Source of the DNA: an uncultured Candidatus Saccharibacteria bacterium | GTDB taxonomy: Bacteria; Patescibacteriota; Minisyncoccia; Minisyncoccales; UBA10102 | Length of the DNA stretch: 64,000 bases | Direction: 5' to 3' | Assembly (NCBI GenBank): GCA_964359655.1 | Contig: CAYHVI010000001.1 | Span: 3,164-67,163, forward strand | Shown here: positions 2,640 through 58,769 of the stretch, piece by piece | How positions within the stretch are numbered: position 1 is the stretch's first letter | Layout: every line of letters starts with the position of its first letter | Translations under genes and position numbers: made by a program | The notes under the pieces: model-generated | Databases searched by the model: none | The model's input: the letters and a program-made list of their open reading frames with translations, nothing else | What the model was told of the DNA's origin: nothing

Positions 2640-3548
2640 TCACACTCCCCTAAGATTAAACAGAGTTTGCGCATTCTTTGTCGTTGCACAGGCGACTTCT
2701 TTAGAATTCACTTTTTTGATGCGCGCGATTTCTTGGGCAATATACTTTACAAAGATTGGTTCGTTTCGCTCTTTTTCCGCTTGCGCAGGCACTAAATAAG
2801 GCGAATCTGTTTCCAGAACAATGCGATCCAAGGGAATAGATGCGATTACTTCTTCTGGTTTTGGCAATGCAGGAACATTCTTGAAAATCAAACCGTTAAA
2901 CCCAAGATACAAACCAAGACCCATAAACTTTTGCGCCTGCTCTACGGTCCCGGTAAAACAATGTATAACGCCACGCAAGGGTGTAGTTTTTAGTTTATAG
3001 TTTGTAGTTAGTAGTTCAAGTAAGTCTTCGTGGGCAACTCGGCAATGGAGAATAACAGGAAGGTTTAATCCATCTGCCAAATCCATTTGCTTTTGCAAAG
3101 TTTCTTTTTGTTTTTGCTTAATTTCCTCTCGTTTTGCTTTGCTCTTTGGGAAATAATAATAATCGAGTCCGATCTCGCCTATCGCAACCACCTTTTTACT
3201 CTTTGCAAGTTCTTTGTATTTCTCGTAATCAAATTCTTCTGATCGAGTCTCAAATGTCATCCAATTCGCAGAATTGCCCTGAGCTTGTCGAAGGGCTTCC
3301 GAATCTTCGGATTGAACCTCCAGTACATCAACCTTTCGCTGTTCTCCAAGATGAATCGGGTGCAATCCAACTGCGCTATACACCCCCTCTTTATATTGTT
3401 CTGCAATTTCAACTGCGCGCTTGGACGTGGAGTACTGCGAGCCTGGCATTATCACCCAAATATCGTTTTCCAGCACGCGTTTCAGCACTTCATCTGAATC
3501 ATTTTTGAACGCATTAAAATTCAAATGACAATGAGTATCGATCAACAT
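2640..3548 (-). CDS. tatD: TatD-family metal-dependent hydrolase/DNase, with a low-complexity internal insertion
   Basis: MLIDTHCHLNF… N-terminus plus …GLHPIH… and …AIGEIGLDYYY… TatD motifs. I take the start as the internal Met at 3546-3548, to avoid overlap with metG. It carries an extra segment …ELLTTNYKLKTTPLRG… encoded by a GTAGTTTGTAGTT-type repeat. Confidence 0.8.
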   Translation of the reverse strand: MLIDTHCHLNFNAFKNDSDEVLKRVLENDIWVIMPGSQYSTSKRAVEIAEQYKEGVYSAVGLHPIHLGEQRKVDVLEVQSEDSEALRQAQGNSANWMTFETRSEEFDYEKYKELAKSKKVVAIGEIGLDYYYFPKSKAKREEIKQKQKETLQKQMDLADGLNLPVILHCRVAHEDLLELLTTNYKLKTTPLRGVIHCFTGTVEQAQKFMGLGLYLGFNGLIFKNVPALPKPEEVIASIPLDRIVLETDSPYLVPAQAEKERNEPIFVKYIAQEIARIKKVNSKEVACATTKNAQTLFNLRGV

Positions 3549-3552
3549 AAAA

Positions 3553-5043
3553 TTAAGTCTCGATTCGCGGGAAAAGAGGATGGGATTCATTCGATTGAAG
3601 TTGCTGGACAATGTTTTCTGCGGCTTGAGGAAGAAACGGTTCCAAAGCCACAGCTATACGCCAAAGTGCGGTCAAGTTATTAACGATATCTCGATCTCTA
3701 TCTACTGCTGAAGTTTTTGGATCGAACGGCCGATGCGCCTCCGTAGAATCACTAATCCCGCTCACGCTGTAAACGTCCCAGAAACCTTGAGGAACTATAG
3801 AACTTTCTTCAGGAAGTCCTTGCCATATTAGCTCGAGCGCCTTCGCAAACTCAAAATTCTCTAGGTGCCTCCAGAGACCTCGACCTTCCCATTCATTGAT
3901 TACTACCCGACGATCGAGAAGTTCTGGTTTTATTCCATGTCTAATTGCTAATGCCAAAACTCTACTTACTTGATTTCCTAATCCATTTGCTAAATCAGCA
4001 TTATACCTTGTCTTAAACTTCTCGTAGCTAAAGTCGCCGTCTTCTGTGGCAGGAATTTCGCGCAAGAGAAAATAGCGCACCGCGTCCGCGCCGTACTTTG
4101 CGACCAGCTCGCAGGGATCTACAACATTCCCAGTGCTCTTGGACATTTTCTGGCCGTTTACCGTTATATACCCGTGGACGAAAAGTGTTTTGGGTAAAAC
4201 CAAACCCGCAGACAAAAGAAACGCCGGCCAATACACCGCGTGAAAACGGGTGATCCCTTTGCCGATTACGTGAACGTCTGCCGGCCACCACTTTTTGTAT
4301 TTTTCTTCGTCTAAACCAAACCCTACGCCCGACTGATAAATGTTTAAAGCATCGAACCACACATACATTTTTTGGCTGTCATCTCCTGGGACAGAGACGC
4401 CCCAGTTTTTCGCACGCTCATTGGAGCGCGAAATGCTTATATCTTGCAAAGGTTGGCTTAAAAAGGCCAGTACTTCATTTTTCCTTGTGACAGGAAAAAT
4501 CTTTAACTCATCTTGTTCTATTATCTCAAGGAGCTTATCTTGGTATTTGGAAAGTTTGAAAAAATAGTTCTCTTCTGCAACCATCTCAAGTTTGCGTCCC
4601 GGATGCTCAAAACACTCTTTGTTTGCGTCAAGCTCTCCTTCTGTGTAAAATGTTTCACACCCCACGCAATAGAGACCCTCGTATGATTTTTTATAGATAT
4701 CTCCGGCTTTTGCGCACAGCTCCCACAATTTTTGGCTCGCTAGGTGATGGTCTTTGCTGCTTCCTTTCTGAAATACACCAAACTGCACGCCGAGTTTTTC
4801 TGCGAGCTCGGCAAAAAGTTTCGCGTTTTCATCGATAAATTGCTGCACAGGCACTCCTGCTTTTTCTGCTGCCTGCACATTTTTCAAAGCATTTTCATCT
4901 GCGCCAGAAAGCAGCAACATATCCTCTCCTTTCAAACGGTGATAACGCGCCACCACATCTGCCTGAACAAATTCCAATGCATGGCCAATATGGGGCTTTG
5001 CATTCACATAAGGAATCGCCGTTGTAATGTAAAACTTGTTCAC
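3553..5043 (-). CDS. metG: Methionine--tRNA ligase (short form, no C-terminal tRNA-binding extension)
   Basis: Class I aaRS HIGH motif (PHIGHA) near the N-terminus and a KMSKS motif. 496 aa. Confidence 0.9.
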   Translation of the reverse strand: MNKFYITTAIPYVNAKPHIGHALEFVQADVVARYHRLKGEDMLLLSGADENALKNVQAAEKAGVPVQQFIDENAKLFAELAEKLGVQFGVFQKGSSKDHHLASQKLWELCAKAGDIYKKSYEGLYCVGCETFYTEGELDANKECFEHPGRKLEMVAEENYFFKLSKYQDKLLEIIEQDELKIFPVTRKNEVLAFLSQPLQDISISRSNERAKNWGVSVPGDDSQKMYVWFDALNIYQSGVGFGLDEEKYKKWWPADVHVIGKGITRFHAVYWPAFLLSAGLVLPKTLFVHGYITVNGQKMSKSTGNVVDPCELVAKYGADAVRYFLLREIPATEDGDFSYEKFKTRYNADLANGLGNQVSRVLALAIRHGIKPELLDRRVVINEWEGRGLWRHLENFEFAKALELIWQGLPEESSIVPQGFWDVYSVSGISDSTEAHRPFDPKTSAVDRDRDIVNNLTALWRIAVALEPFLPQAAENIVQQLQSNESHPLFPRIET

Positions 5044-6128: not shown

Positions 6129-8087
6129 TCACACTCTGTTTTTGATGAGGGCATCCACAACTGAAGGGTCGGCCAAAGTGCTTGTATCACCGAGTTCCTC
6201 GAAATTACCTTCTGCTATTTTGCGCAAGATTCTTCTCATAATCTTGCCGGAACGAGTCTTGGGAAGCTGTTCTGCAAACTGAATTTTATCTGGCTGCGCA
6301 ATAGGCCCAATTTCTTTCCTCAACTGCTGCACTAAAGCTTCTACCAAACCTGCAGAGGGTTGATAACCTTGCTTTAACGTAACAAAACAATACATTCCCT
6401 GGCCCTTGATATCGTGAGGAAATCCCACCACTGCTGCCTCTGCCACGCTCTCATGGGCCACCAACGCGCTTTCGATTTCTGCGGTGCCAAACCTGCGGCC
6501 TGCAATATTTAATACGTCGTCTACTCTGCCCAAAAGCCAATAAAATCCGTCTTCGTCTTTTCGGCAGCCGTCTCCGGTAAAGTATTTACCATGAAATGCA
6601 GAAAAATACACGCTTTTCACGAGTTCATTTTTCGGGTCGCCGTATACGCCTCGAATCATTCCTGGCCATGGTTTGGTAATGACTAATTTTCCGCCCTCGT
6701 TAATATCCGCGAGCGTGCCGTCTTCCCGCAAGATTTCAGGAACAACTCCAAAGAATGGAAACGAAGCAGACCCTGGCTTTGTTGGACTAGCTCCTGGAAG
6801 CGGAGTTATCATGATTCCTCCAGTTTCTGTTTGCCACCAGGTATCTACGATGGGACAGCGCTCTTTGCCGATCACGCGATAATACCACATCCATGCTTCA
6901 GGATTGATTGGTTCTCCCACGGTGCCTAAGATCCGAAGACTGGAAAGATCATGCTTATTTGGCCATACTTCTCCCAAACGCATTAACGCGCGTATCGCGG
7001 TAGGCGCTGTATAGAAAATGGTTACTTTGTATTCCTCAATAATTTTCCAAAAGCGATCAGGTTCAGGATACGTTGGTGTGCCCTCAAACATAAATACGGT
7101 AGCTCCATTTGAAAGAGGTCCATACACCACATAGGAATGCCCAGTAATCCATCCGGCATCTGCCGTGCACCAATACACATCTTCGTCTTTCATATCAAAT
7201 ATGTATTTAAAAGTGCAGGTTGCATACAACAAATATCCTCCTGTAGTATGCAAAACGCCTTTTGGTTTACCCGTGCTTCCGCTTGTGTACAAAATGAATA
7301 AAGGATCTTCTGCGTCCATCTCTACGGGTTCGTGTATATCAGAAATGTCAGACGCTTCCATTTCTTCTATCCACCAAAAGTCACGTCCCGGCTTCATGTC
7401 GCAACTGGTATTCCCCCGGTTGTACACGATTACTTTTTCTACTTTTAGACATCCTTGGAGCGCCTCATCCACTTTCTTTTTGAGCTCAATCATTTTGCCT
7501 GCATGAAACCCCACGTCTGCAGTAACAACAACTTGCGACTTGCAATCCAATATTCTGTTCTTTAACGCTTCTGCTGAAAATGCAGAGAACACTACCGAGT
7601 GAATAGCTCCAATGCGGCTGCAGGCAAGCATGGCAATGGGAAGCTGTAGAATCATGGGAAGGAAAATGGTAACGATCGTACCCTTTTTCACTCCATGCTT
7701 TTCTAACACATTGGCTAACTTACACACCTGTTCATGCAGTTGTTGATACGTGAGCGTGCGCTTTTCTTTTTCATCCTCTCCCTGCCAAATGATCGCAGCC
7801 TTGTTTTTCCTCCAGGTAGCAAGGTGTCTGTCCAAACAGTTGAATGACACGTTTATCTTGCCTCCTTCAAAGAATTTAAGATAAGGCTGTTCTTGCTCTC
7901 CTATGCGAGAGAAATCATATTCCATAACCCGATCCCATTTTTTAAACCACGAAAGATGTTGTTCTGCCTGTTGCGCCCAAAATCCTTCGGGATTCTCAAC
8001 CGACTCTTTATACAGCCTTTGATACTCTTCCATATTTGGAATATGAGCCTTCTCGCTCAACTCTTTGGGAGGGTAAAAGATAGCCAT
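6129..8087 (-). CDS. acs: Acetyl-CoA synthetase (AMP-forming)
   Basis: 652 aa with an N-terminus typical of Acs (…PEGFWAQQA…), the AMP-binding motif [11 protein letters not shown], …TGDG… and …WQTETGG…. Confidence 0.92.
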
Positions 8088-8089
8088 GG

Positions 8090-10852
8090 CTAGGATTTAA
8101 CTTTTTTATAAGCTTCCATGATACAAAAATTCGTGACCATAGTGAGGCCGTAATCTTGCGCAAACCTTTCTGCTTCTGGGGTATTCACGCCTTCAGCCAG
8201 CCAAACAGTTTTAATATTTCCCCGCTCTACCACGTCTTTCATACATCCTACTACTGCTTCGGGTTTTCTAAAAATATCCACAATATCAATGTGTATAGTT
8301 TTAGGGATTGCCAAAAGGCTTGGATACGCCTTTTCTCCCAGCACCTCTTGAATATTGGGATTCACAGGAATAATGCGGTAGCCCTTTTCTTGGAAATACT
8401 TTGCCACGATATGGCTATGGCGTTCTGGCTTATCCGACAAACCAATAACCGCGATGGTTCTCGCATTTTTCAGAATATCTCCATGCTTGATATCTTGCGG
8501 TGTAACCGTAACAGGAGACACGCCTTCCCATTGCCAGTCCGTAAGTTCTGGAGGGTCTTCTCCAAACTTTATAATGTACGCGGTGTGTCCTTTGAGAATT
8601 TTGTGGTATGCCGCAACCAAAACGTTTTTCCTTTCTTCTGAAACCACGCCTTCTTTTGCGGCAGTCTCAACAATTTCAATGGCAAGGTGGTAACGATCCG
8701 CTTCATTCCGAACAAGCATGTCAAAAGGCGTAGTTGTCCCTCCCTTCTCTTGGTAACCATGCACTGAAAAACGCTGCGGATTTTTGACATTAAAAAGCAC
8801 TGCTTTCAAGACTTCTGGATAGCCGTGAAAATTTACAATCACTGGCTTGTCGAACGTAAAGTATTTTTCTGCATGGGGGATTTGCGCATGGAATGCGTTT
8901 TCGCAAGAACATGCCGCTTGCAACCGCATGATGTTGACAAAACGAAGACGGATTGATGGCTGATCCTTTTTTACCAGCGCAAGTGCAGCCAATGCTTCTT
9001 TGCTCACATAATCTCCCACGCCCGCAAGAACAATATGAGGATTTTTATCACTGGTAAAATCCCAAATTTGAATGCCGTCTTGGAGCGCTTTTTTTGCCTG
9101 CGAAAAGGTCAGCCAGCGCGGCTCGGGTGTTTTTCCAACCACGACAACATTCATCTGGTTCTTGGAGCTAAGCGTTTCTTCCATTACCGCAAGCATGCTG
9201 TTGTCGTCAACCGGAAAATAGACTTTGATAAAATCGTTGTGTTTTTCCAGCATACCCGAAATAAAACTGGGGTTCTGGTGAGAATATCCATTGCGTTCTT
9301 GTCTCCAGACTGTAGATGTTAGCAAATAGTTTAGAGATGGAATGTCCAGTCGCCAAGGCACAACCCGTGCATATTTTAAAAACTTTTGGTACATATGCGC
9401 CATGCTGGAGAAAATCTGGGCAAAAGCTTCGTAGGTTGTAACGACCGCATGTCTGCCGGAAAGAATATATCCTTGGGCAAGCCCATGCATATTGAGTTCA
9501 GAAAGCATCTCCATAACCCGTCCATCTCTCGCAATATCTTTGTCTGATGAAAAATACGGCCAAACAAATGCACGGGAAGTTACCTGAAAAACATCGTCAA
9601 GCCGGTTGGAGTAAGTCTCGTCGGGAGACATTAAGCGAAAATTCCTCTGCCTTTTATTCAGCACAAAGACTTTCTTCAAGTAAGATCCCGCCGTTCTCAT
9701 GGCATTTGATTGCATTTCTCCTGGCGCGACAATCTCCTTGGCGAACTTTTCAACCTTTGGCAAGACAAGGGGCTTTACGGTTTTACCGAACACATGGGGA
9801 TTATTCCCCATAAGAAGGCTCTCTTCCGGTATAACAGACAATGTGTCTTTGGCAAAACCTTTCTTCTTATCAAACAATTCTCCAAAATGATATGATTTCA
9901 TCCACCCCTCAAGCGCGTGTAATTCCTGTTCGTCGCCCCGCACCGTGGGCATAACAACTTGGTGCGCTAAAATCGTTCCTTCAATTTGTTGCCCGCGTAA
10001 TTCTTTGACCGTGGTCCACCCTTTAGGGGTTTGGAGAATAATCATTGGGAAACGCGGCCGAAACGGAGCATTCAGTTTTCTTGCGTTGCGCTGGATTTTC
10101 TTGATGCGCTGGTAACAAGTTTCGAGAGTTTTGAGCATTTTTTCATCGATTCTTGGAGCCGCTACAAACAATGGTTCATATCCGTATCCTGAAAAAAGTT
10201 CTTTTAATTCGCGATTGCTCATTCTGCCAAAAATTGATGGTCCGGAAATTTTATAGCCGTTGAGGTGCAGAATTGGTAAAACCGCGCCGTTGGTTGCAGG
10301 ATCAATCAATTTGTTAATATGCCAAGCAGTCGCTATGGCTCCTGTTTCTGCCTCGCCGTCACCTATTAAGCAGACTGCGAGTAAGTCCGGATTGTCTAAA
10401 ATTGCGCCATAAGCAGAAGCAAGCGAATATCCCAGCTCTCCGCCTTCCAGAATAAGTCCCGGGATTTCCGGACTGCAATGACTGGAAAAACCATAGGGCC
10501 AGGTAAACATCTTGGAAATATATGCAATTCCTTCGGCATTACGCGCCGCCTTCTTATAATACTTTCCGAGCGTGCCCTCCAAAAACAAGTTAGCCTGCAA
10601 TCCCGGCATACCATGTCCTGGCCCAAGGACAAAAATAGCTGATTGCTTGTGTTTTTTGACTAAATAATGTAAGTGTCCATACACAAAGTTAATGCCAGGG
10701 CAGGTCCCCCAGTGGCCAGAAAGTTTTGGCTTGATATCTTCCGCTCTCAATGGCCGCTCAAGGAGAAAATTGTCTTGCAAATAAATCTGCGCAACAGTTA
10801 CATAATTCGCTGCGCGTATGTATTTATTGATGTTATCTAAAATTTTATTCAT
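8090..10852 (-). CDS. xfp: Xylulose-5-P/fructose-6-P phosphoketolase fused to a C-terminal CoA-binding (YccU/CoA_binding_2-like) domain
   Basis: …KYIRAANY…IYLQDN… N-terminus, a GHWGTCPG motif and a TPP-binding GDGE motif. The C-terminal ~140 aa (…[36 protein letters not shown]…VDIFRK…) matches a CoA-binding Rossmann domain. I take the start at the internal Met (ATG at 10850-10852), which sits downstream of the rsmI terminator. Confidence 0.85.
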
Positions 10853-10863
10853 AATGTTGCAAA

Positions 10864-10897
10864 GAAAAAAACCGCCCTGGAGCTTGTCGAAGGGCGG
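10864..10897 (-). terminator. Rho-independent terminator after rsmI (minus strand)
   Basis: CCGCCCTggagcttgtcgaAGGGCGG hairpin preceded by an A8 run on the plus strand, giving a U-tract on the minus strand. Confidence 0.6.
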
Positions 10898-11153
10898 CGC
10901 GCTCATGTTACAAATAGTTCTTAAATTCAATAACAAGAAGCGAAGACGCACCACCCTTCAAAAGTGGTTTTTTTCGCTTTTTTACTCGCGAGTGACGAAA
11001 CCTGAATCTTCGGAACCGCAGAGACTAAACCTCGACAACAACAATAACTCCTCCCCCATCTGGAGAAGGATTTTTCAGAGCCAAGATTTTCTCTTGCGTT
11101 TACCATGATACTCAAATCATAGAGGAGTCAAAAAATAATGTCAACCCCTCCCT

Positions 11154-11828
11154 TCATGTAAAATTAATCACGATAACAAATTCGCCCTTTAGCTCACCTT
11201 TCTTGATTTCATCAATAACTTCAGAAATAGTTCCTCGATGCACTGTTTCGAATTTTTTGGTGAGCTCGCGGCCTACTACGGTTTGTAGTTGGTAGTTTGT
11301 AGTTTTTAGCTCGTGCAAAGTTTTCATAATACGATAGGGAGATTCGTAGAGAATAACAGGATATTTCGACTGCGCAATTTCTTCAAAAAACTTTTTGCGA
11401 CCTTTCTTTGCGGGCGGAAATCCAAGGAACAAAAAGCGATCCATCGGAAACCCTGCGATGCTTGCAATCGTCGTGAGTGCAGAGACGCCTGGAATTGGCA
11501 CAATCCTTACTGTTTGAAGCCCGGCTTCAAACACGCGGGAAACAAGCTCGTTGCCGGGGTCTGAAATTCCTGGAGTGCCGGCATCGCAAACCAACGCAAG
11601 GTTTTTCCCTTCTTTCAAGAGCTCAATAATGTGTTCAACTTTCTCAAGCCTGCTATGCTGATGATAACTTATCAACGGCTTGTCAATCTGATAATGCGAA
11701 AGGAGTTTTTTTGTTACCCTTGTGTCTTCGCACAAGATAAAATCAACCTCCTTGAGGATGCGGAGGGCGCGCAGAGTGATGTCTTTAAGATTGCCGATGG
11801 GAGTCGCGACAATATACAAAGTGCTCAT
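11154..11828 (-). CDS. rsmI: 16S rRNA (cytidine1402-2'-O)-methyltransferase
   Basis: …LYIVATPIGNLKDITLRALRILKEVDFILCEDTRVT… tetrapyrrole-methylase-fold N-terminus. It contains the in-frame repeat insert …LKTTNYQLQT…. Confidence 0.85.
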   Translation of the reverse strand: MSTLYIVATPIGNLKDITLRALRILKEVDFILCEDTRVTKKLLSHYQIDKPLISYHQHSRLEKVEHIIELLKEGKNLALVCDAGTPGISDPGNELVSRVFEAGLQTVRIVPIPGVSALTTIASIAGFPMDRFLFLGFPPAKKGRKKFFEEIAQSKYPVILYESPYRIMKTLHELKTTNYQLQTVVGRELTKKFETVHRGTISEVIDEIKKGELKGEFVIVINFT

Positions 11829-18457: not shown

Positions 18458-19081
18458 TCAATTTTGCAGAACCTTTGAAAGATGCTCTTGCGATATGGTG
18501 CGCAAAAGAGTTTCATTTATACCTTGAGTATCAATATTTTGCAAGGATTCAATGTTGCTCTCCAAAAACATCCCAATGAATTCGGCAATTCTCGCGTCTT
18601 TGGCAGCAATCTGCTCTAAAGAAGGCGCATATCCTGCATAAGAAAGAAGGTTCCAAAGGAAATAATAAGCAAGGATCTTCAAATCGTGACTCTCTAGTCT
18701 CGAACGGTTCAGAAAAGAAAGTGTCCCTTTGAGCAAATTCCAAATCTTTTCGTCCCGCTCTTGGCCTTTGATGAGTTCATCGGTAACTTCTGCAAATCTT
18801 TGCATTGCGCGCATACGCTCAAAGCTATTGCGTAACAAAGGATACCGTTCTACAAGAGTGGCGTCGGTAATGGTTTTGCGCGCTTTCCCCTGAATAAATT
18901 CTAGCTCTGAAAGATAAAAAAGCTCCAAGCCTCCGCGAAGTTTGGAAGTAATCTTGCGCTCTGAAATTGCCTGCAATTTTAGTTTGCCAAAATCTTTTGT
19001 AAAAACCGTAAACAGCCGATCTGCCTCCCCTCTATCCTGCTTTTTTAAAATAATCCCTTGTGTCCTGTAATGCACCGTCAT
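18458..19081 (-). CDS. recO: DNA repair protein RecO (short form)
   Basis: OB-fold N-terminus (…GIILKKQDRGEADRLFTVFT…) followed by a helical domain. Confidence 0.65.
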   Translation of the reverse strand: MTVHYRTQGIILKKQDRGEADRLFTVFTKDFGKLKLQAISERKITSKLRGGLELFYLSELEFIQGKARKTITDATLVERYPLLRNSFERMRAMQRFAEVTDELIKGQERDEKIWNLLKGTLSFLNRSRLESHDLKILAYYFLWNLLSYAGYAPSLEQIAAKDARIAEFIGMFLESNIESLQNIDTQGINETLLRTISQEHLSKVLQN

Positions 19082-22000
19082 TATTTTCGGATGGCGAGAC
19101 GGAGAGTTTGGCCTTCTAATGAGAACTCTTCTTCTACATCAAACGTTTGCTCTGACCGATCGCCCTCGCGCATTTCTTTCAACCCAACTTGAGACATAAT
19201 TGCTTTTTCATTTTCTTGCAGAATTTCTTTCAGTTCTTCTGCGCCCGTGTAGCGCAAACGTATTCTGTCTTGCGGCTTGTACCCTGCCTGCTTTCTCATT
19301 TCCTGGATATGGCGCATTATCTCGCGCAATGTTCCTTCTCTTTGCAATACGGGAGTAATGGTGGTATCGAGTTCTACCCCTTCTTTCGCGTTCGGATCGA
19401 CCAGAACCTCTTTTACATTAAGTTCATCCTTTATCAAATCCAGCAATTCTTTCGTCATTTTTAATTTTTCACTTTTAATTTTGAATTTTTGGAGCGGCTG
19501 TCTCACTTTTATTCCGACCTTCGCCCGTTCTGCCAATCCTTCTGCAACCAGCTTGCGAACTTGCATCATTTTTTTCTCGAGCTCTGCGTCAATTTTTTTT
19601 GAATCTGCTTTGGGCCAATTTTGCCAATGTACACTTCCCCTGCCCCCAAGTTCACCATAGATATACTCGCTCAAAAACGGGATGAGTGGCGCGGTCAACT
19701 TGCTGACTTCCAAAAGTACGCATCTTAAAACGCCTCTGGCTTCCTGAAGCTCTTTTTTGCTCTTGGGGTTTTGGGAACGTTGTCGAGAACGTCGAATATA
19801 CCACAAAGAGAGATCGTCGATCACAAAACTTTCGAGCACGCGCGCAGTTCCTGTGATGTCGTATTCATCAAACCTTTTGGTTGCCTCTCTTGTTATGGAG
19901 TGGATTCTCGAAATAATCCACTTATCTAAGATATTTTTTGTTTTGAGGTTTTGGGTTTTAGGGTTTGCTTGAGCATTGAGTCTTGAGGTTTGGGATTTTT
20001 TATATGTTTGGTAGAACACAAAAGAGTTCCACAACGTCAAAATAAATTTGCGCATTGTTTGCTGCAAATCTTTTTCCGCAAATAGTTTGGAATCCCACGG
20101 CTGGTTCAATGTATAAAAATACCAGCGAAGCGTGTCCACTCCATACTTTGCAATCATATCCCAAGGATTTACCACATTTCCTTTGGACTTGGACATTTTC
20201 TCGCCTTTCTCATCAAGCAAATGCCCCAAAGAAATTACGTTTTTGTATGGCGCTTTCAAGCCCAACGCCGTAGCCACAGCCAAAAGCGTATAAAACCATC
20301 CGCGTGTTTGGTCGATTGCTTCGCAAATATAATCTGCGGGGTAACCTTCCACGCCAGAAGCAAACGGCATGGAGCCTGAATCAAACCATACATCCACGAC
20401 GTCTTTTACGCGTTTCATTTGCCCTTTGCCACATTTTCCGCACTGAAATTCGATCGCATCAATGTACGGCCTGTGCAAATCAAGTTCCATATCTTCGTTC
20501 ATGGGAAGCCTCGCGAAAGCTACACGTCTTAACTCTCCTGGTTCAACTGCTTTTTTTTCGCGGAACTGCACGAATTTTTCTCGCGACATTCCCTTCATCG
20601 TTTTCTCCAACAAAGAAAGAGGTATCTCATGACTTACCAAAACAATGCGTTTCCCTTGATACTTTTTTTCTATTGCGGCTAGCAAATCAAACACGCGCTT
20701 TTCAACATCGACCCAATTCTCTCCCTGCGGCGGCCGTTCCACAAATCTACGCAGATAATGCTCCTGGATCGTTTCTCCTTCTTTTCTAAAGTATGCTCCA
20801 AACTCACGAATGTGCTTTCCATTGAAAATGCCTACATTAAGTTCTCGTAGCCGCGCATCGTAGATAATTTGCGCGCCAAGTTTTTTCCCAATGATTTCGG
20901 CAGTTTGTTTCGTTCGCAAAAGATCGGATGAAAAAATCAAATCAATGTTTTTGCGCAACAGACCTTCTGCGATTTTTGTAATTTGTTTCACTCCCTTGGG
21001 CGTCAAAGGAAACGGATCCGCCTCAGGATACGAACCCAAAATCCCCGTTACTTGACGCATAGAATGGCCGTGCCGCAAAAGATAGTACGTGTTTCCCGAA
21101 GTTCTTTGTTTTTTGAGATCGTCCAGAGAACCTATGACTTCCAAATGATCGCACGAACTGCACTCCCACACAGGTAAAGGAGTACCCCAGTACCGTTCTC
21201 TCGAAAACGCCCAGTCTTTCACCTCGGCCAACCATTCACCCATCCTGCCTACTTTCATATGGCTCGGAATCCAATTAATCTGTTGGTTATTCGAAATGAG
21301 ATCTTTTTTAATCTTCTGCATATTCACAAACCAGCTTTCTTTTGCGTAATACAGCAAAGGAGTCGAACACCTCCAGCAAAAAGGATATTCGTGTTCATAC
21401 AACTCTTCTTTGAACAAAAGATTTCTTTGCTTTAAATCTTCAACAATCAGAGGTTCTGCTTCTTTCACGAATACTCCTTGCCATTGAGGCACTAATTCGT
21501 TGAACTTTCCTTCTTCGTCTACCGTATGCCTTTTGGGAAGATTTAGTTTTTGCCCGAGCTTGTAATCGTCTTCTCCGTACATCACCGCAGTGTGCACAAC
21601 TCCTGTTCCTTCCTGCGTAGAAACAAAATCCGCCAGTGCCACATAATGTTTTTTCTCTGGCTGGCTTTTGAGAGAATCAAAAAGCGGTTCATATTCTATA
21701 CCTTCAAGGTTTTTTCCTGAAACTTCTTTGAGAATTTCGTAATCTCCCTGAAGAATCTTTAGAAGATCTTTGGCAAGAATATATATTTCTTCTCCTTGTT
21801 TTACTGCGACATACGAGATATTTTCCCCTACCGCAAGAGCGACGTTCCCAGGCAGTGTCCACGGTGTTGTTGTCCACGCCAACAAAAACAATTTTGAATT
21901 TTGAATTTTGAATTTTGAAATTGTTTCGGATTTCGAATTTCGGATTTCGAATTTCACAAAGACGGTTCTGTCTTTGACCGTCTTGTACCCTTGCGCCAAT

Positions 22001-22596
22001 TCATGCGACGACAAAGGAGTCCCACAACGCGGACAATAAGGCACCACTTTGTAATCTTTATATAACAATCCTTTCTTCCAAAACTGCTGGATAATCCACC
22101 ATAGACTCTCCATATAATTCTTCTCATAGGTGATGTACGGATTATCGATGTCTAACCAAAAACCTATGCGCTCTGTAAGTTCATCCCATTCTCTTTTATA
22201 TTCCCATACCGACTGTTTGCATTCTTTATTGAATTTTGCGATCCCGTATTGCTCAATTTCTTTTTTGGACTTTAATCCAAGTTTTTTCTCAACCTGCAAC
22301 TCTACGGGCAGACCGTGAGTATCCCAGCCAGCTTTTCTGCCAACGTAAAATCCCCGCATTGTTTTGTAGCGGCATATTACGTCTTTAAAAACCCGCGAAA
22401 GAACATGATGAATTCCGGGACTTCCGTTTGCCGTGGGAGGGCCTTCAAAAAATACAAAACGAGGAGAGCGCTTTCTCCTCTCAAGAGATTTTTCAAACGT
22501 TTTCTGCTCTTTCCACCGCTTCAGTATCTGCTCTTCCAACTTCGAAAAATCAGCTTCCATGCTCTTTAGAATACTACGTTTTGCATACCTTTTCAA
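19081..22596 (-). CDS. ileS: Isoleucine--tRNA ligase with an inserted histidine-phosphatase (PGAM-like) domain and two in-frame repeat insertions
   Basis: HIGH-type signature (…PTANGSPGIHHV…), KMSKS (KMSKSKGN), and editing and anticodon-binding domains. Residues ~498-703 (nt ~20488-21105) form a histidine-phosphatase domain (…YYLLRHGHS… plus …VLVSHE…). It sits between the conserved …YWGTPLPVWEC… and …HRPYID…WFDSG… segments. Confidence 0.9.
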   Translation of the reverse strand: MKRYAKRSILKSMEADFSKLEEQILKRWKEQKTFEKSLERRKRSPRFVFFEGPPTANGSPGIHHVLSRVFKDVICRYKTMRGFYVGRKAGWDTHGLPVELQVEKKLGLKSKKEIEQYGIAKFNKECKQSVWEYKREWDELTERIGFWLDIDNPYITYEKNYMESLWWIIQQFWKKGLLYKDYKVVPYCPRCGTPLSSHELAQGYKTVKDRTVFVKFEIRNSKSETISKFKIQNSKLFLLAWTTTPWTLPGNVALAVGENISYVAVKQGEEIYILAKDLLKILQGDYEILKEVSGKNLEGIEYEPLFDSLKSQPEKKHYVALADFVSTQEGTGVVHTAVMYGEDDYKLGQKLNLPKRHTVDEEGKFNELVPQWQGVFVKEAEPLIVEDLKQRNLLFKEELYEHEYPFCWRCSTPLLYYAKESWFVNMQKIKKDLISNNQQINWIPSHMKVGRMGEWLAEVKDWAFSRERYWGTPLPVWECSSCDHLEVIGSLDDLKKQRTSGNTYYLLRHGHSMRQVTGILGSYPEADPFPLTPKGVKQITKIAEGLLRKNIDLIFSSDLLRTKQTAEIIGKKLGAQIIYDARLRELNVGIFNGKHIREFGAYFRKEGETIQEHYLRRFVERPPQGENWVDVEKRVFDLLAAIEKKYQGKRIVLVSHEIPLSLLEKTMKGMSREKFVQFREKKAVEPGELRRVAFARLPMNEDMELDLHRPYIDAIEFQCGKCGKGQMKRVKDVVDVWFDSGSMPFASGVEGYPADYICEAIDQTRGWFYTLLAVATALGLKAPYKNVISLGHLLDEKGEKMSKSKGNVVNPWDMIAKYGVDTLRWYFYTLNQPWDSKLFAEKDLQQTMRKFILTLWNSFVFYQTYKKSQTSRLNAQANPKTQNLKTKNILDKWIISRIHSITREATKRFDEYDITGTARVLESFVIDDLSLWYIRRSRQRSQNPKSKKELQEARGVLRCVLLEVSKLTAPLIPFLSEYIYGELGGRGSVHWQNWPKADSKKIDAELEKKMMQVRKLVAEGLAERAKVGIKVRQPLQKFKIKSEKLKMTKELLDLIKDELNVKEVLVDPNAKEGVELDTTITPVLQREGTLREIMRHIQEMRKQAGYKPQDRIRLRYTGAEELKEILQENEKAIMSQVGLKEMREGDRSEQTFDVEEEFSLEGQTLRLAIRK

Positions 22597-29099: not shown

Positions 29100-30824
29100 C
29101 TATGGAAGCATCGCAAGCATTTTCTCTGCAGAAAGAGTGTTAATAATATCTTTCTTTTCTGCCCAACCGCGCTTGGCTTGCGCAATACCGTACTTCAAAC
29201 ATCCAAAATGATCTTGAGCATGGGCGTCAGAATCAATAGTCATCTTGCACCCTGCCTCTACGGCCTTTTTAATATTGCTGTCTTTTAAATCTAAACGATC
29301 CGGAAACGCGTTAATCTCTAGAATTGTTCCTGTTTTCTTTACTTCCCTTATAATTTCGTCCATATCAACCTCATACGCCTCCCTCTTATGAATAAGACGG
29401 CCGGTTGGGTGGAACAAGATATCAACATTGGGATTTCGCATGGCTTTCACTATTCTTGCGGTCATATCTTTTTTCGTCATCTTAAAACTCGAGTGCACAG
29501 CAATTCCTACCACATCGAGCCTTGAAAGAACTTCGTCTGTAATATCGAGTGTCCCGTCTTTTCGAATATTCACTTCCGCTCCTTTCAGTATCTTAAATTT
29601 CGAATTTCGAAATTCGGATTTCGAATTTATTTTGTCGATCTCTCGCATCTGCGCCAGCAGTTTTTTCTCGTCCATGCCTCCAGTCATCGCAAGATCTCGT
29701 GTGTGATCAGTTATTGCAATATACTCCAATCCCTGTTTCTTTGCCTCTTTTGCCATAGCTTCTATCGAGTCTTTACCATCGGTCCAGTTTGTCTGCACTT
29801 GCAAGTCTCCTTTCAACGAATCATACGGAATAACGCTTGGAAGTTTTCCTTCAAGGGCACAATCTATTTCTCCTTGATCTTCCCGCAGCTCTGGCTCAAT
29901 ATATTCCATTCCTAATGCTTTGTACACATCTTGTTCGGTTTTGCAGGCAATGCGTTTTTCCCCCCGAAACAATCCATATTCTGAAAGCTTATATCCCTTA
30001 TTTGCAGCACGTGTTCGCAACCTCACATTGTGCTCTTTTGATCCTGTAAAATATTGAAGTCCTGCTCCAAACACCTCTTGCCGCAGAACGCGCATATCAA
30101 TGTCGAACCCTTCGGTAGTGCGCAAAGAAACCTTGGTTGATCCTTTCCCCCAAATTTTTTCATACGAAACCAAGGAAAGAAAATACTCGACTGCTTTTTC
30201 CGGCTTGCTCGTGGTAATCAAGATATCCACATCGCCGATCGTTTCTTTCATTCGCCTGATCGAGCCTGCTGCAACCGCCCGCGTAATCAATGGAGAATCC
30301 TCCAGCCGCGCAACCAAATCTTCTTGATAAGGATAGATGTTGCCGAGGAGCCATCTTCCCTTCGAGCGTTTTACAAAATCAATGCCCTGCAGAATATTTT
30401 GCTCTGTTTTTTCGCCAAAGTTGGGAAGCTTTCGCACCTTGCCTGCTTTGGCCGCTTTTTCCAAATCATCGAGGGTTTTGATTTTCAGATGCTTATACAA
30501 ATCGCGCACCATTTTAGGCCCTACTCCCTCAATAGAAGTAAGCTCTTGAATGTCAACCGGAAATTTCTTCCGGAGTTTTTCATGCTCTTGGATTTCTCCT
30601 GTTTTAATGTACTCTTCGGTTTTCTCTGCTATGCTCTTCCCAACTCCCGGAATCTGTTCTAATCCCCGCAACCCTTCTCTCTCGTATATTTTTTCTACGC
30701 CTTCTGACAGAGATTCTATGGCATTTGCTGCTCTGACATATGCCTGCGGCTTGAAAGGCACACTGTCGATCTCCAGATACAAAGCAATATTCGAAAAGAG
30801 AGAGGCTAATTTTTTATTGGTCAT
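29100..30824 (-). CDS. polX: Family X DNA polymerase with C-terminal PHP domain (PolX)
   Basis: Pol-beta-like N-terminal HhH/fingers/palm (…GVGKSIAEK…, …GSIRRMKETIGDVDILI…) and a C-terminal PHP domain (…HTRDL…, …DSDAHA…). It contains the in-frame repeat insert …INSKSEFRNSKFKI…. Confidence 0.85.
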   Translation of the reverse strand: MTNKKLASLFSNIALYLEIDSVPFKPQAYVRAANAIESLSEGVEKIYEREGLRGLEQIPGVGKSIAEKTEEYIKTGEIQEHEKLRKKFPVDIQELTSIEGVGPKMVRDLYKHLKIKTLDDLEKAAKAGKVRKLPNFGEKTEQNILQGIDFVKRSKGRWLLGNIYPYQEDLVARLEDSPLITRAVAAGSIRRMKETIGDVDILITTSKPEKAVEYFLSLVSYEKIWGKGSTKVSLRTTEGFDIDMRVLRQEVFGAGLQYFTGSKEHNVRLRTRAANKGYKLSEYGLFRGEKRIACKTEQDVYKALGMEYIEPELREDQGEIDCALEGKLPSVIPYDSLKGDLQVQTNWTDGKDSIEAMAKEAKKQGLEYIAITDHTRDLAMTGGMDEKKLLAQMREIDKINSKSEFRNSKFKILKGAEVNIRKDGTLDITDEVLSRLDVVGIAVHSSFKMTKKDMTARIVKAMRNPNVDILFHPTGRLIHKREAYEVDMDEIIREVKKTGTILEINAFPDRLDLKDSNIKKAVEAGCKMTIDSDAHAQDHFGCLKYGIAQAKRGWAEKKDIINTLSAEKMLAMLP

Positions 30825-47545: not shown

Positions 47546-48865
47546 TCAAATTTTTGTAAATTCTTCCTCAACTACTTTGCGTTCATCCCATGGAATTTTT
47601 TTACCTCCAGCTATTGCAATTGCGTCTTCCGAACCCTTGCCGCTTATCACCACCACGTCGCCTTCTCGCGCCAAAGACAATGCTCTACGAATCGCCTCTC
47701 GTCTATCAATAATTTTCAATAAATCTTGAGCTTTGAGCTTTGAGCTTTGAGCTTGAGAAACTCCAGAAGCAATTTGCTCGATGATTGCTTCTGGGTTTTC
47801 GTCATAGGGATCTTCATTGGTCAAAACAATAGTGTCGCAATACGAGGAAGCGATTTTGCCCAATAGAGGACGCTTCCATTTGTCGCGGCCGCCTCCGCAC
47901 GCTCCAAATACGCAAATAAGCTTTTTTGGCTCGAACAAACGTCGCACCCCAGCGTATAAATTTTCCAGCGCCTTTGGAGTAACCGCGTAATCAATCAATA
48001 CGCAAAACGGTTGGGTAATCACGGGCTCGGTTCTGCCCGGCATCCTCGGCATTTTCGCCAAAGCAGATTGGCACACTTCCATAGAAATTCCATGCGCCAA
48101 TCCCACGCATGTTGCAGCTAATGCATTGTACGCGTTAAATTGCCCAATAAGATTCAAGTGAAAAGCTACTCCATTGATGAAAAAATTCGTGCCCTCTTTT
48201 GTTTCTCGCACGTCGCTTCCGACAAATGTTTGGGTTTTAGGATTTGGGATTTGATTGAGATTTGAGGTTTGGGGTTTTGGATTTACTCCATACATGTATG
48301 TTTCGTTTGCGGGAATCTGAAAAAAATATGCCGCGTTTTCGTCATCCCCATTGACTACATGGAGTTTTTTGGCAGTAAAAAACAGCTTTTGTTTTTCTGC
48401 CCGATATTTTTCAAAAGAGCCATGCCGCTCAATATGCTCGGGCGACAAATTGGTGATTACTGCAGTGTGGAAATTCAAAAATCGGTGGCGATGCTGCAAA
48501 ATTCCTTCAGAGCTCACCTCGATGATTGCATGCGTACATCCCTCGAGCAGAGCTTGTGCCAAGAATTTTTGCAAAAACATTCTACCTGGCATTCCCATTT
48601 TCAACGTGTTTTTCCACTTTTTTTCTCCTATTTGAAACCACACCGAAGAAGTCGAACAAGTCTTATGCCCTGCTTCTTTGAAAATCCGTGTAATCATTTC
48701 CGTAGTGGTGGACTTGCCATCTGTACCAGTTATGCCAACTACAGTGAGTTTCCTCGCGGGAAACCCGTACATCACAGCGCCCGAAAACGCCCACAAAAAA
48801 TGATACCAGCTCAAGGCAAATCTCGGGACAGACCTCTGCAAAAGATTCTTTGCTCTTGCCATCAT
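47546..48865 (-). CDS. murE: Mur ligase family protein (MurE/MurF-like), with two in-frame repeat insertions
   Basis: Mur-ligase P-loop GITGTDGKSTT, a central domain and a C-terminal domain (…DYAVTP…). It carries …NPKPQTSNLNQIPNPKTQT… and …QAQSSKLKAQ… low-complexity inserts. Confidence 0.7.
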   Translation of the reverse strand: MMARAKNLLQRSVPRFALSWYHFLWAFSGAVMYGFPARKLTVVGITGTDGKSTTTEMITRIFKEAGHKTCSTSSVWFQIGEKKWKNTLKMGMPGRMFLQKFLAQALLEGCTHAIIEVSSEGILQHRHRFLNFHTAVITNLSPEHIERHGSFEKYRAEKQKLFFTAKKLHVVNGDDENAAYFFQIPANETYMYGVNPKPQTSNLNQIPNPKTQTFVGSDVRETKEGTNFFINGVAFHLNLIGQFNAYNALAATCVGLAHGISMEVCQSALAKMPRMPGRTEPVITQPFCVLIDYAVTPKALENLYAGVRRLFEPKKLICVFGACGGGRDKWKRPLLGKIASSYCDTIVLTNEDPYDENPEAIIEQIASGVSQAQSSKLKAQDLLKIIDRREAIRRALSLAREGDVVVISGKGSEDAIAIAGGKKIPWDERKVVEEEFTKI

Positions 48866-56531: not shown

Positions 56532-58769
56532 TCAAAAGAGAACTTTTTCCACACCATCCCAGTTTTTTCCTTTTTTCACATCCACTTGTAAGGGTACTTT
56601 GAGCACCAAGATTTTTTCCATGAGCAGCTTGATGGGGCGACTCCTTGCCTCCACTATACCATCTGCAATTTCAAACAACAACTCGTCATGAATCTGCAAG
56701 AGCATGCGTACTTCCTCTTTTGGCGGAGCGAGCTCTTGTTGGATTTTCACCATTGCCATTTTCACTAGGTCTGCAAGACTCCCTTGAATGGGGTGATTCT
56801 GCGCCATGCGTTCTGCCGCGGCGCGCAACTGGGGCGTGCTTGAGTTCACTTCCGGAAGGTATCTCCGCCTTCCAAACATGGTTTCCACATAGCTATGAGT
56901 TCTCGCAAACTCCTTGGTTTTTTCCATATACTCATAGATTTTCGGGAAACGAACAAAGTACTGTTCAATAAAGTCGCGGGCTTTGTCTATAGGAATTCCG
57001 GCAGACTTGGCAAACCCTTGAGCGCCCATGCCGTAGAGCACTCCAAAGTTTAGCGCCTTTGCGGAAAATCGCATCTCGTCAGTCACTTCTTTACTTAAAA
57101 CTCCGAACACCGAGGCAGCCGTCATCTTATGAATATCCTCGCCTGCCTGAAAAAATGAGCGCATCTGCTCATCGCCCGACAAATGGGCAGCAATACGCAG
57201 CTCCATTTGAGAGTAATCAAAAGAAACCAAGGAAAACCCTTTTTCTGCAATAAATCCCCGCCGAATGCGCCTTCCCCATTCCCCCTGTTTGGGAATATTC
57301 TGCAGATTGGGTTGGACAGAAGAGATGCGGCCTGTTGCAGTCCCCAACTGGTCAAAATGGGTATGCACTCTGTCTTTCTCGTCAGCAAGCAAAGGAAGCG
57401 GCCTTGCATACGTGGTGAGAAGCTTTTGAATTTCACGATACTTGAAAAGTTCTTCCACCACTGGATGGCTTTCTCGAAGTTTTTCTAATTCAGGCGAGGC
57501 AGTAGAAATTACGCCTTTTGGAGTTTTTTTCAATCCTTTCACCGGAAGCGCCAAATCTCCAAATAATACTTCAGACAGCTGCTGGGTTGAATTGATATTA
57601 AACTCTTTGCCTGCGTGCTCGTGGATCTTTTCTTTCAAAACATTCAGCGCCCCTTCCATCTCTCGAGAAAGTTTTCCAAAGTATGGTCTGTCGATTTTAA
57701 TCCCGATTTCTTCCATAGTACGCAATATGGGTACCAACTGCTTCTCTAATTTGTAGATTTCCTCTGAAAATACCTGCTCTGCATACAGTTGTTCAATTTT
57801 TTCGAGGGTCATATCGCGTGCGTTTTGTCCTTCAACAATCACAAGCTGCCCCTTTTCTCGAACTTGAACTTTCTTTCTGTCCAATCGCCCCAAGAGCGAC
57901 TGAAATCCAAAACGTTCCAGAACTTCTGTTATTTTTGAAAAATCCTCTTGCCACTCCAAATCTGGCAACCGAAAATCAATGGGCGTGTTTTTTTCAATTG
58001 TTGCCAATTGTTGACTTAAAAATGCTTGATCTTTGTAGTCTTTGAGCAGCTGGAGAATTCGTGGCTTTATTTTCTTTTCTGCCTCTCCACTCTCGAGCGC
58101 AGCATACAGAACCTCCAGAGAATCAAACATATTGAGCAACTCGATCGCGGTTTTCTCGCCAATTCCGGTAACTCCCGGAATATTATCTGAAGGATCTCCG
58201 CGCAACGCTTTGTAATCAATAATTTGTGCAGGCTTTAAACCTCCAAACTTTTTCTCCACTGCTTTCTCGTCATACAGCACTGTGTCTTGAATACCCTTGC
58301 GCATAGTGTACACCCTTGTTTTTTCGTTGATCAATTGAAACGCGTCCTGGTCTCCAGAAACAATAATAATTTCCATTGGAGGATGAACTTGTCTCTGTCC
58401 AGCTAATTTTGCAACAGTTCCTATACAGTCGTCAGCCTCAAATCCTTGCTTTTCATAGGTTGGGATACCGAGCTCTGCGAGCGCTTCTTTCACCAAAGGA
58501 ATTTGCGCATACAATTCATCGGGCGCTTTTGCCCTTTTTGCTTTGTATGCCGCGAATTTCTTTTCTCTCTCGGTTGGTCCTGGCGTATCAAAGGCAGCTG
58601 CGATGTAGTCTGGTTTGAATTCTTTTAACACCTTAAAAAACACCAGAAAAAATCCGTATACCGCATTCACCATTTCTCCTTTGGCCGTGCTCAAAGGCGG
58701 CAAAGCATGATACGCTCTGTGAATCAAAGAATTTGCGTCAATAATCAAAAGTGTTTTCTTCTCTGGCAT
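56532..58769 (-). CDS. polA: DNA polymerase I (5'-3' exonuclease + polymerase domains; 3'-5' exo region reduced)
   Basis: N-terminal 5' nuclease (…LLIIDANSLIHRAYHAL…, …GFEADD…) and C-terminal polymerase motifs A (…DYSQMELRI…), B (…RRxAKxxNFGxxYG…) and C (…QIHDELLFE…). 745 aa. Confidence 0.9.
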   Translation of the reverse strand: MPEKKTLLIIDANSLIHRAYHALPPLSTAKGEMVNAVYGFFLVFFKVLKEFKPDYIAAAFDTPGPTEREKKFAAYKAKRAKAPDELYAQIPLVKEALAELGIPTYEKQGFEADDCIGTVAKLAGQRQVHPPMEIIIVSGDQDAFQLINEKTRVYTMRKGIQDTVLYDEKAVEKKFGGLKPAQIIDYKALRGDPSDNIPGVTGIGEKTAIELLNMFDSLEVLYAALESGEAEKKIKPRILQLLKDYKDQAFLSQQLATIEKNTPIDFRLPDLEWQEDFSKITEVLERFGFQSLLGRLDRKKVQVREKGQLVIVEGQNARDMTLEKIEQLYAEQVFSEEIYKLEKQLVPILRTMEEIGIKIDRPYFGKLSREMEGALNVLKEKIHEHAGKEFNINSTQQLSEVLFGDLALPVKGLKKTPKGVISTASPELEKLRESHPVVEELFKYREIQKLLTTYARPLPLLADEKDRVHTHFDQLGTATGRISSVQPNLQNIPKQGEWGRRIRRGFIAEKGFSLVSFDYSQMELRIAAHLSGDEQMRSFFQAGEDIHKMTAASVFGVLSKEVTDEMRFSAKALNFGVLYGMGAQGFAKSAGIPIDKARDFIEQYFVRFPKIYEYMEKTKEFARTHSYVETMFGRRRYLPEVNSSTPQLRAAAERMAQNHPIQGSLADLVKMAMVKIQQELAPPKEEVRMLLQIHDELLFEIADGIVEARSRPIKLLMEKILVLKVPLQVDVKKGKNWDGVEKVLF

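Follow-up and report, generated by a model that had tools for sequence, protein, structure and literature searches.

Heptanucleotide repeats within tatD and rsmI of an uncultured Candidate Phyla Radiation bacterium as members of a period-7 class of in-frame coding arrays

The genes tatD and rsmI, located on a 64-kb stretch of DNA from an uncultured Candidatus Saccharibacteria bacterium (GenBank assembly GCA_964359655.1, contig CAYHVI010000001.1; the whole stretch analysed is referred to as the window), each contain a short tandem array of a 7-base unit that encodes nearly the same peptide in two different enzymes. We propose that both sites are heptanucleotide simple-sequence repeats (SSRs) inside coding DNA, which would have been born by slippage and kept at permissive sites, and that they are not copies of an inserted element; a probability of roughly 0.68 is assigned to this reading. 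The two sites belong to a class of coding-region tandem arrays in this clade of the Candidate Phyla Radiation (CPR) that is specific for period 7, and its members are kept in-frame and recur at permissive protein sites. The closest homologues of the window genes are found in metagenome-assembled genomes of CPR/Patescibacteria (Candidatus Paceibacterota, Ca. Wildermuthbacteria).

Both arrays read (GTAGTTT)n on the plus strand and hence (AAACTAC)n on the coding strand. The tatD array (2982-3016, minus strand) consists of about five AAACTAC units and encodes the peptide LLTTNYKLKTT, within the translated context ...LLELLTTNYKLKTTPLRG...; in the numbering of the 302-residue protein the array peptide corresponds to T181-L191. 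Tandem Repeats Finder describes it as period 7 with 5.0 copies of the unit TGTAGTT and 85% matches. The rsmI array (11281-11309, minus strand) has about four AAACTAC units with an interruption, CCAACTAC, and encodes KTTNYQLQT (K175-T183) in the context ...LHELKTTNYQLQTVVGRE...; here the program reports 4.1 copies of the period-7 unit GTTTGTA with 86% matches. The host genes are a TatD-family hydrolase (2640-3611, minus strand; Pfam PF01026 TatD_DNase, E 2e-73), for which database gene calls place the start either at the ATG at 3548 (302 aa) or farther upstream (316 aa), and a member of the 16S rRNA C1402 2'-O-methyltransferase family (11154-11828, minus strand; Pfam PF00590 TP_methylase, E 1e-34), whose best PDB match is E. 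coli RsmI (5HW4, E 1e-51).

A search of the window with GTAGTTTGTAGTT, allowing up to two mismatches, returned seven overlapping matches, all within the tatD and rsmI sites, where 1.13 were expected, and none of 100 shuffled versions of the window reached seven. With a 21-mer of three units and up to three mismatches, five matches were found against an expectation of zero. The leucine codon of the arrays is CTA, which accounts for only 4% of the leucine codons across the window genes, and an alignment of the two arrays with each other is significant at p<0.0005. The use of this rare codon, together with the array alignment, indicates that the similarity is that of a DNA-level repeat and not of protein convergence. 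A preliminary description of this DNA had reported a near-identical nucleotide repeat in the two genes, a shared KTTNY(K/Q)L(K/Q)T-type peptide and sharing at the DNA level, and all of this holds: the sequence is present as quoted at both sites, with the translations TTNYKLKTT in TatD and KTTNYQLQT in RsmI. Both arrays open at the Glu-Leu codons (GAA or GAG, followed by CTA) with which the preceding helix closes and which constitute the first unit.

The two arrays are not isolated cases: according to Tandem Repeats Finder, the window contains at least ten tandem arrays of period 7, and their units differ. All of those listed lie in-frame within long minus-strand open reading frames (ORFs) for housekeeping proteins identified by Pfam, i.e. 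TatD, RsmI, IleRS, PolX, a Mur ligase and TsaE, and their units include AAACTAC, AAATTCG, AAATCCG, AAAATTC, AAAGCTC and AAAACCC. In a uniform scan of self-similarity at lags 4-15, in which an array was counted at a score of at least 10, the window yielded seven arrays at period 7, none at any other period from 4 to 13 and none at 15, the harmonic period 14 being the sole exception, and shuffled sequence yielded about zero. The same scan of TatD-anchored loci from related genomes, with the same score threshold, identified period 7 as the commonest array period. Wildermuthbacteria-like relatives (177 kb) have 11 period-7 arrays and at most two at each other period, except for the harmonic at period 14 (nine), and other CPR (261 kb) also have 11, with up to seven at other periods, so that period 7 is less dominant there. 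A sample of E. coli K-12 (50 kb) contains no arrays at period 7 or at any other period. In all 1.17 Mb of loci fetched there are 248 period-7 arrays, compared to 10-39 for any other period, and about 121 are left once the unit selected by the metagenome scan described below is removed.

The units of these arrays are diverse in sequence and strongly biased in composition. About 85 different units occur in the 1.17 Mb, and among the roughly 121 arrays not ascertained by their unit, AAAATTC recurs eight times and AAATTCG four times. For 69 ORF-borne arrays that were not selected by unit, the coding-strand unit contains 45% A and 8% G, compared to 30% and 25% in the gene background, and K, N, S, I, Q, F, L and T make up most of the residues they encode. 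Avoidance of stop codons was considered as a cause of the restricted unit set, but it is a weak filter, as 1608 of the 2340 heptamer necklaces are free of stops. The GC skew of the plus strand is negative in every 4-kb bin of the window, and the minus strand carries almost all of the long ORFs; the window thus appears to be part of one replichore whose genes are co-oriented, and the orientation of the arrays relative to replication is therefore inseparable from that relative to transcription.

The other arrays of the window, all on the minus strand, illustrate the range of units and hosts. IleRS contains an array of AAATTCG/AAATCCG followed by AAAATTC units directly before the WTTTPWTLP motif (21890-21955; peptide VKFEIRNSKSETISKFKIQNSKL), an AAAACCC-like array before LDKWII (19940-19967; peptide ANPKTQNLKT), and a weaker, A-rich array of period 7 in its C-terminal region (19457-19490; peptide QKFKIKSEKLKM). 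PolX has an AAATTCG array in its PHP domain (29596-29628; peptide INSKSEFRNSKF). A single Mur ligase gene carries both a perfect array of four AAAGCTC units (47726-47754; peptide QAQSSKLKAQ) and an array of about eight AAATCCC/AAAACCC units (48229-48284; peptide VNPKPQTSNLNQIPNPKTQT). TsaE has two arrays, of AAATCCG-type and CGAATAT-type units (59743-59826), which together form an insert of about 26 residues at a hotspot that is variable in the family.

In tatD the array resides at a hotspot of insertion and deletion. A comparison of 120 TatD homologues revealed that the segment between the HCRxAH and G(V/I)xHC(F/Y)TG motifs varies in length. The orthologue in locus L152 (protein P0031; loci from other genomes are numbered in this way) has no array, reads GAA CTT CTT GAT TCG CCA CTC, and is exactly 21 nt or 7 aa shorter than the window gene; the array is also absent from L001, L002 and L007. 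Orthologous arrays are present in L024 and L026, the latter with four perfect units, and the tatD gene of L154 (P0028) equals the L024 allele minus exactly 21 nt, i.e. three units. When read in register, the unit is CTACAAA in the window, L024 and L026, ATACAAA in L030, ATACAAG in L028 and AGACAAG in L014, so that one base per unit differs between lineages. Such a series is what would be expected from concerted evolution of a single orthologous tatD array. More distant CPR have other heptamers at the same TatD loop, namely AAATTCT in L008 and AATTTCC in L016. In the array segment the window TatD is only three residues longer than the TatD-related DNase of PDB 2GZX. An AlphaFold2 model of TatD (mean predicted local distance difference test score, pLDDT, 85.6) places the array peptide at the end of helix 173-183 and in a loop (mean pLDDT 62) that leads into strand 193-196. 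We take this loop, which connects a helix to a strand, to lie apart from the conserved metal-binding residues, judging from general knowledge of TIM (triosephosphate isomerase) barrels.

TatD has a second, unrelated elaboration. Relative to 2GZX, an insertion of about 33 aa is found at query residues 67-108 (gene 2640-3548, minus strand); its consensus, EQRKVDVLEVQS...W..FETR.EEFDYEKYKEL, is conserved across the clade, and it is modelled at low confidence (pLDDT 57-61). The extended internal segment noticed in the preliminary description thus exists, but it is a lineage-specific elaboration of TatD that is conserved clade-wide and has nothing to do with the heptamer array.

A second kind of insert, GC-rich and in-frame, was observed at the same hotspots. 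In the rsmI gene of L024 (L024:2643-3335) the heptamer array is split by the 15-nt sequence CTGGCTGGGCAGGCT, encoding LAGQA, and the tatD gene of L005 has a GC-rich, partly palindromic stretch of about 60 nt within the array. Homologues with related peptides contain SGQA, SAQGR, RQDSGQ or GDLPKGD, and the segment EALRQAQGNS of the window TatD (at about 3266-3300) is grouped with these inserts. A second recurring element behind the LRQAQG residues of TatD was considered and rejected, as the 17-mer CGACAAGCTCAGGGCAA is unique in the window.

The rsmI site differs from the tatD site in that the array adds no length. The array segment is as long as that of array-less orthologues (a 45-nt core) and one residue shorter than that of E. 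coli RsmI 5HW4. The predicted structure shows it as the end of a helix, a tight turn and the beginning of a strand, all modelled with confidence (block pLDDT 85-91), and the N-Y-x-L of the array peptide fits the family consensus ELxxxNxxLxxVV. An insertion at this position is ruled out by the unchanged length and the confidently modelled segment. The array is shared with L002, where 35 of 39 bases are identical to the window, including the CCAACTAC interruption; nucleotide identity between the two genes is 90% in the array versus 63% outside, and of the identical residues, 9 of 12 in the array versus 51 of 139 elsewhere also have identical codons. L002 is a different species, and the rsmI array is old. 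L002 has the rsmI array and no tatD array, while L028 and L030 have the tatD array and no rsmI array, and this reciprocal pattern indicates that the two arrays have independent histories.

The AAACTAC unit is spread far beyond these two genes. A scan of metagenomes for AACTACAAACTACAAACTA, a 19-nt (AAACTAC) pattern, returned at least 120 stretches. Among 88 arrays in 80 loci examined, about half are located in long open frames, where they read as NYKLQTT, and the in-frame hosts among the matches listed comprise some 20 unrelated enzyme families (Pfam) with unrelated flanks. These hosts include asparagine synthase, AnmK, DapF, a 6-phosphogluconolactonase/glucosamine-6-phosphate isomerase family protein, MnmA (two), RsmB/F, TsaD (four), Fmt, IleRS, the NAD-dependent DNA ligase LigA (two), Mur ligases (two), group-1 glycosyltransferases (two), a PfkB kinase, an amidase, SCO1 and a nucleotidyl transferase. 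The repeat type is therefore widespread rather than confined to two genes, and relatives share the nucleotide repeat and not the peptide alone.

Different units can occupy the same protein site. The IleRS gene of L065 has (AAACTAC)n at the position of the AAAACCC-type array of the window IleRS (before LDKWII), and a TsaE homologue in L092 has (AAACTAC)n where the window TsaE has its AAATCCG-type arrays. In a comparison of 120 TsaE homologues, this hotspot has a base form of 20 residues (20 sequences) and longer forms with 7 (21 sequences), 9 (13 sequences) and up to 31 additional residues, the +7 class being the largest insert class. The hotspot peptides represent many heptamer types (YKIQNTR, YKLQTKN, FEIRNSK, KIQNSKF, PKSQTN and others), and residue identity within them peaks at lag 7. 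A test of the insert lengths for multiples of seven gave p=0.002, but other moduli were significant too, as the sequences are related and most of them fall into a few length classes; the +7 peak is therefore descriptive only.

The window IleRS (19081-22596, minus strand; 1171 aa) has a further peculiarity, in that a complete histidine-phosphatase domain (His_Phos_1, PF00300, E 2e-33, residues 505-679) sits between the two halves of the class-I catalytic domain match. The L065 homologue (993 aa) does not have this domain. To our knowledge, such a domain insertion is unusual in an aminoacyl-tRNA synthetase.

The preliminary description had interpreted the two arrays as insertions of a common element. 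We compared 60-nt flanks on both sides of the arrays and sought target-site duplications. The downstream flanks of the tatD and rsmI arrays are unrelated (p=0.99), and no target-site duplication was found at either array in this comparison. An exact 13-mer, TCCTGTTATTCTC, is located upstream of both arrays (about 3047-3059 and 11350-11362 in plus-strand coordinates) and nowhere else in the window. It encodes a PVIL beta-strand that is ancestral in both TatD and RsmI and is present with or without arrays, and as other genomes encode PVIL with other codons, the match is considered a coincidence. A shared mobile element, lacking both defined ends and any common non-repeat sequence beyond this ancestral match, was therefore rejected. 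Relative to empty sites, tatD is 21 nt longer (compared to L152) and rsmI is unchanged in length, so that the claim of insertion can be retained for tatD and has to be dropped for rsmI. With unrelated flanks, no target-site duplication, independent presence and absence across genomes, and a surrounding class of arrays with many different units, the notion of a shared inserted element is replaced by that of two independent members of a repeat class. Three features of heptanucleotide SSRs are found here: 7-nt units arranged head-to-tail, an excess specific to the period, and whole-unit steps among relatives, as L154 versus L024 and L152 versus the window each differ by exactly 21 nt (three units) and the TsaE hotspot has its +7 aa class.

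Several other repeat classes were considered and rejected. Contingency loci, such as those of Haemophilus and Neisseria, typically belong to genes for the cell surface or for interaction with a host, and differ between closely related strains. They resemble the present arrays in being coding SSRs with a unit that is not a multiple of three, where the slip of a single unit switches the gene off. The hosts in this study, however, are housekeeping enzymes (IleRS, TsaE, Mur ligase, RsmI), and near-identical strains (cluster members with 99-100% identity) have identical arrays without length variation, arguing against phase-variable loci. Targets of a diversity-generating retroelement are not indicated either: no further copy of the sequence was found in the window (a reverse transcriptase gene was not searched for), and the variation among orthologues consists of whole-unit insertions or deletions and concerted unit changes, not of A-specific substitutions. 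A lack of mismatch repair was also considered as the cause of the arrays, but two large ORFs between tatD and rsmI, suspected of encoding MutS/MutL, turned out to encode phosphoketolase and acetyl-CoA synthetase. The phosphoketolase (8090-10954, minus strand; XFP N, middle and C domains) also carries a CoA_binding_2 domain (residues 832-946) as a C-terminal fusion, and the acetyl-CoA synthetase gene (6129-8087) lies directly downstream of it.

The period of the arrays has particular consequences in coding DNA. A 7-base unit read in triplets passes through all three frames and so yields a peptide with a periodicity of seven residues (N-Y-K-L-Q/K-T-T), and only changes of three units (21 nt, 7 aa) preserve the reading frame. 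Units of 4, 5 or 8 bases are subject to the same frame constraint and are not enriched, so that selection alone cannot explain the period; we argue from this that the preference for seven comes from the mutational process. In our proposal, slipped-strand mispairing during replication or repair, with a preference for 7-base steps, would create and alter the arrays, and selection would purge those that shift the frame or encode unsuitable peptides. Hydrophilic arrays, rich in K, N, S, T and Q, would remain at permissive sites, and their confinement to such sites would explain why the same sites recur. In tatD the array would lengthen a surface loop after a helix, and in rsmI the array sequence would have replaced a segment of native length, with an NYxL peptide that suits the N..L pattern of the family. 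The AAACTAC unit shared by both would then be a popular and tolerated one, for which the Glu-Leu codons (GAA/GAG CTA) may have provided the seed in both genes. For the proteins, the most probable outcome is a variation of loop sequence that is neutral or almost so.

In the PolA protein of the window (only 745 aa; 56532-58769, minus strand), Pfam identifies a 5'-3' exonuclease domain and a family-A polymerase domain separated by about 87 residues, so that a 3'-5' proofreading domain appears to be missing. Any relevance of this short PolA to slippage-prone gap filling is speculative.

Several observations weigh against an origin by slippage, which is itself inferred and not observed. Slippage from local seeds would predict the opposite of what is found, namely one unit in many unrelated genes and different units at one site. 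The Glu-Leu seed fits tatD and rsmI, but no common seed is seen next to the metagenomic (AAACTAC)n arrays. Slips of a single unit shift the frame, and yet arrays of four to five units stay homogeneous. Where species share an array, its conservation exceeds that of the remaining gene even at synonymous sites, as in rsmI of the window and L002; this hints at nucleotide-level constraint or more recent spread, although the comparison carries a bias, being confined to arrays that can still be recognised. The absence of length variation among near-identical strains implies that the arrays are not hypervariable. Finally, the rsmI array adds no length and is structured, and so requires replacement instead of simple expansion.

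The recurring units, the homogeneity and conservation of the arrays, and the constant-length conversion of rsmI keep two other explanations alive, namely array copying and a function at the nucleotide level. In the former, array loci would be copied from one another by template switching or ectopic gene conversion, or repeats would be synthesised at breaks by a dedicated activity, with tatD and rsmI as recipients. This is the strongest version of the earlier idea of a common element, and it would account for an AAACTAC pattern in some 20 unrelated families with unrelated flanks (at least 120 metagenomic stretches), for different units at the same hotspot, for the replacement in rsmI, for arrays more conserved than their host gene and for the recurrence of a few units such as AAAATTC and AAATTCG. 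We nevertheless consider it unlikely, as there are no shared flanks, termini or target-site duplications, and about 85 different units are difficult to reconcile with a single template. Moreover, the rsmI and tatD arrays are each orthologous across species, older than their divergence, and independently gained or lost, and the in-register series of one-base unit changes in tatD points to an array that evolved in place. In the window, in which a reverse transcriptase gene was not searched for, neither a candidate enzyme nor a template was identified.

Selection for a function of the arrays, which we regard as improbable too, could act on an A-rich and G-poor nucleic acid bound by one protein per heptamer, for example an unstructured stretch of mRNA or DNA with a cold-shock-type OB-fold (oligonucleotide/oligosaccharide-binding fold) protein as the binder, or on 7-residue peptides serving as surface modules. 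The excess conservation of synonymous sites in shared arrays (subject to the ascertainment bias mentioned above), the strong strand asymmetry and G depletion, and the lack of length variation between strains would all be consistent with such a function, and CspB has been reported to bind heptamer direct repeats with one protein per heptamer (PMC4679880). On the other hand, the units are so diverse that no single sequence-specific binder fits. The arrays are also repeatedly lost or absent in orthologues without other visible change, peptides at one site differ completely between lineages, and the TatD peptide is predicted to form a low-confidence loop on a helix-to-strand connection. A chance or compositional convergence of two A-rich loops rich in Lys, Asn and Thr might be imagined, since a helix with a terminal Glu-Leu precedes both sites and loops of CPR proteins are in general rich in these residues. 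With none of 100 shuffles reaching the observed matches, the significant alignment of the arrays, a strict 7-nt periodicity that includes a rare CTA codon, and an enrichment specific to period 7, it is effectively refuted and extremely improbable.

The proposed mutational preference for 7-base steps agrees with what has been reported for other prokaryotic repeats. According to the summaries of Mrazek et al. 2007 given in PMC4679880 and PMC4692102, heptamers are the most abundant class of long SSRs in most prokaryotic genomes, and polymerase slippage has been proposed for this excess; coding-region repeats are expected to have units in multiples of three (PMC4679880). The arrays described here share with prokaryotic long SSRs (units of 5-11 nt), as far as these summaries portray them, the head-to-tail arrangement of 7-nt units in few copies, the heptamer excess and the differences in length among relatives. 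The heptamer SSRs studied so far, as presented there, are intergenic, whereas the present arrays are located in-frame in housekeeping enzymes with all three frames read, and recur at the same protein loops across the CPR clade. The short tandemly repeated repetitive (STRR) sequences of cyanobacteria (Calothrix/Nostoc) and the GGGGA(T/C)T and GGGAATC repeats (Nostoc, Xanthomonas) likewise have 7-nt tandem units, lineage-specific abundance and several unit families per genome (PMC4692102). They have G-rich or fixed units, are over-represented between genes and may form G-quadruplexes, in contrast to the many A-rich, G-poor units within ORFs found here, and an assignment to such G-rich heptamers was rejected on this basis (units with 8% G, all in ORFs).

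The TAACTGA repeat of marine Beggiatoaceae, cyanobacteria and Bacteroidetes is also a heptamer direct repeat that occurs in distant genes and taxa without an evident mechanism of mobility (PMC4679880). It is present in 2-6 copies, and the consequences of reading it in three frames have been worked out; it contains stop codons in the forward sense, is found mainly upstream of starts, has a single favoured unit and has been suggested to play a regulatory role (PMC4679880). The units in the present study differ from it in being stop-free in the coding sense, diverse, and within genes. The amino-acid tandem repeats of Borgs are comparable as A-biased tandem repeats that arise within ORFs and create new peptide segments; they are of local origin, often encode disordered peptides and form in a genome-specific manner (PMC9879509). 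Borg ORF repeats have unit lengths that are all divisible by three, are near-perfect and evolve rapidly (PMC9879509). The arrays discussed here are short and often degenerate, are conserved between species and reside in core housekeeping genes, and as their 7-nt unit is not divisible by three, a Borg-type origin was rejected.

A literature search yielded no report of heptamer repeats, or of any SSRs, in CPR/Patescibacteria, although such absence is no proof, and nothing decisive on mismatch repair as a cause. Essential genes would normally be expected to exclude tandem repeats whose unit length is not divisible by three, as each slip of a single unit is a frameshift. It is in this light that an ultra-small CPR clade carrying heptamer arrays in IleRS, TsaE, a Mur ligase, PolX, RsmI and TatD, at recurring protein sites, should be seen: in-frame heptamer SSRs in CPR housekeeping genes are an under-described and somewhat counter-intuitive feature of genome evolution, and not a new molecular machine. 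If they occur genome-wide, they would trace many of the odd low-complexity inserts of CPR proteins to a simple origin at the DNA level and would be natural markers of permissive loops in conserved enzymes. Annotation and alignment would also improve, as array segments should not be taken as homologous protein motifs, and the clade would be a favourable system for studying the 7-base preference of long SSRs, since the frame constraint separates one-unit from three-unit events.

A more far-reaching possibility, which we hold to be doubtful, is that Paceibacterota/Wildermuthbacteria-like CPR have a lineage-specific mutational process working in 7-base steps, which would continually supply coding DNA with A-rich heptamer arrays drawn from a limited set of units; these arrays would be long-lived, in part through nucleotide-level constraint. 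Candidates for such a process would be an unusually slippage-prone replicative or repair polymerase, or a templated activity that adds repeats or copies arrays. Should this be true, heptamer arrays would be a general, hitherto undescribed means by which loops are remodelled in essential proteins encoded by reduced genomes, and could explain many of the low-complexity segments rich in K, N, S, T and Q in CPR proteins.

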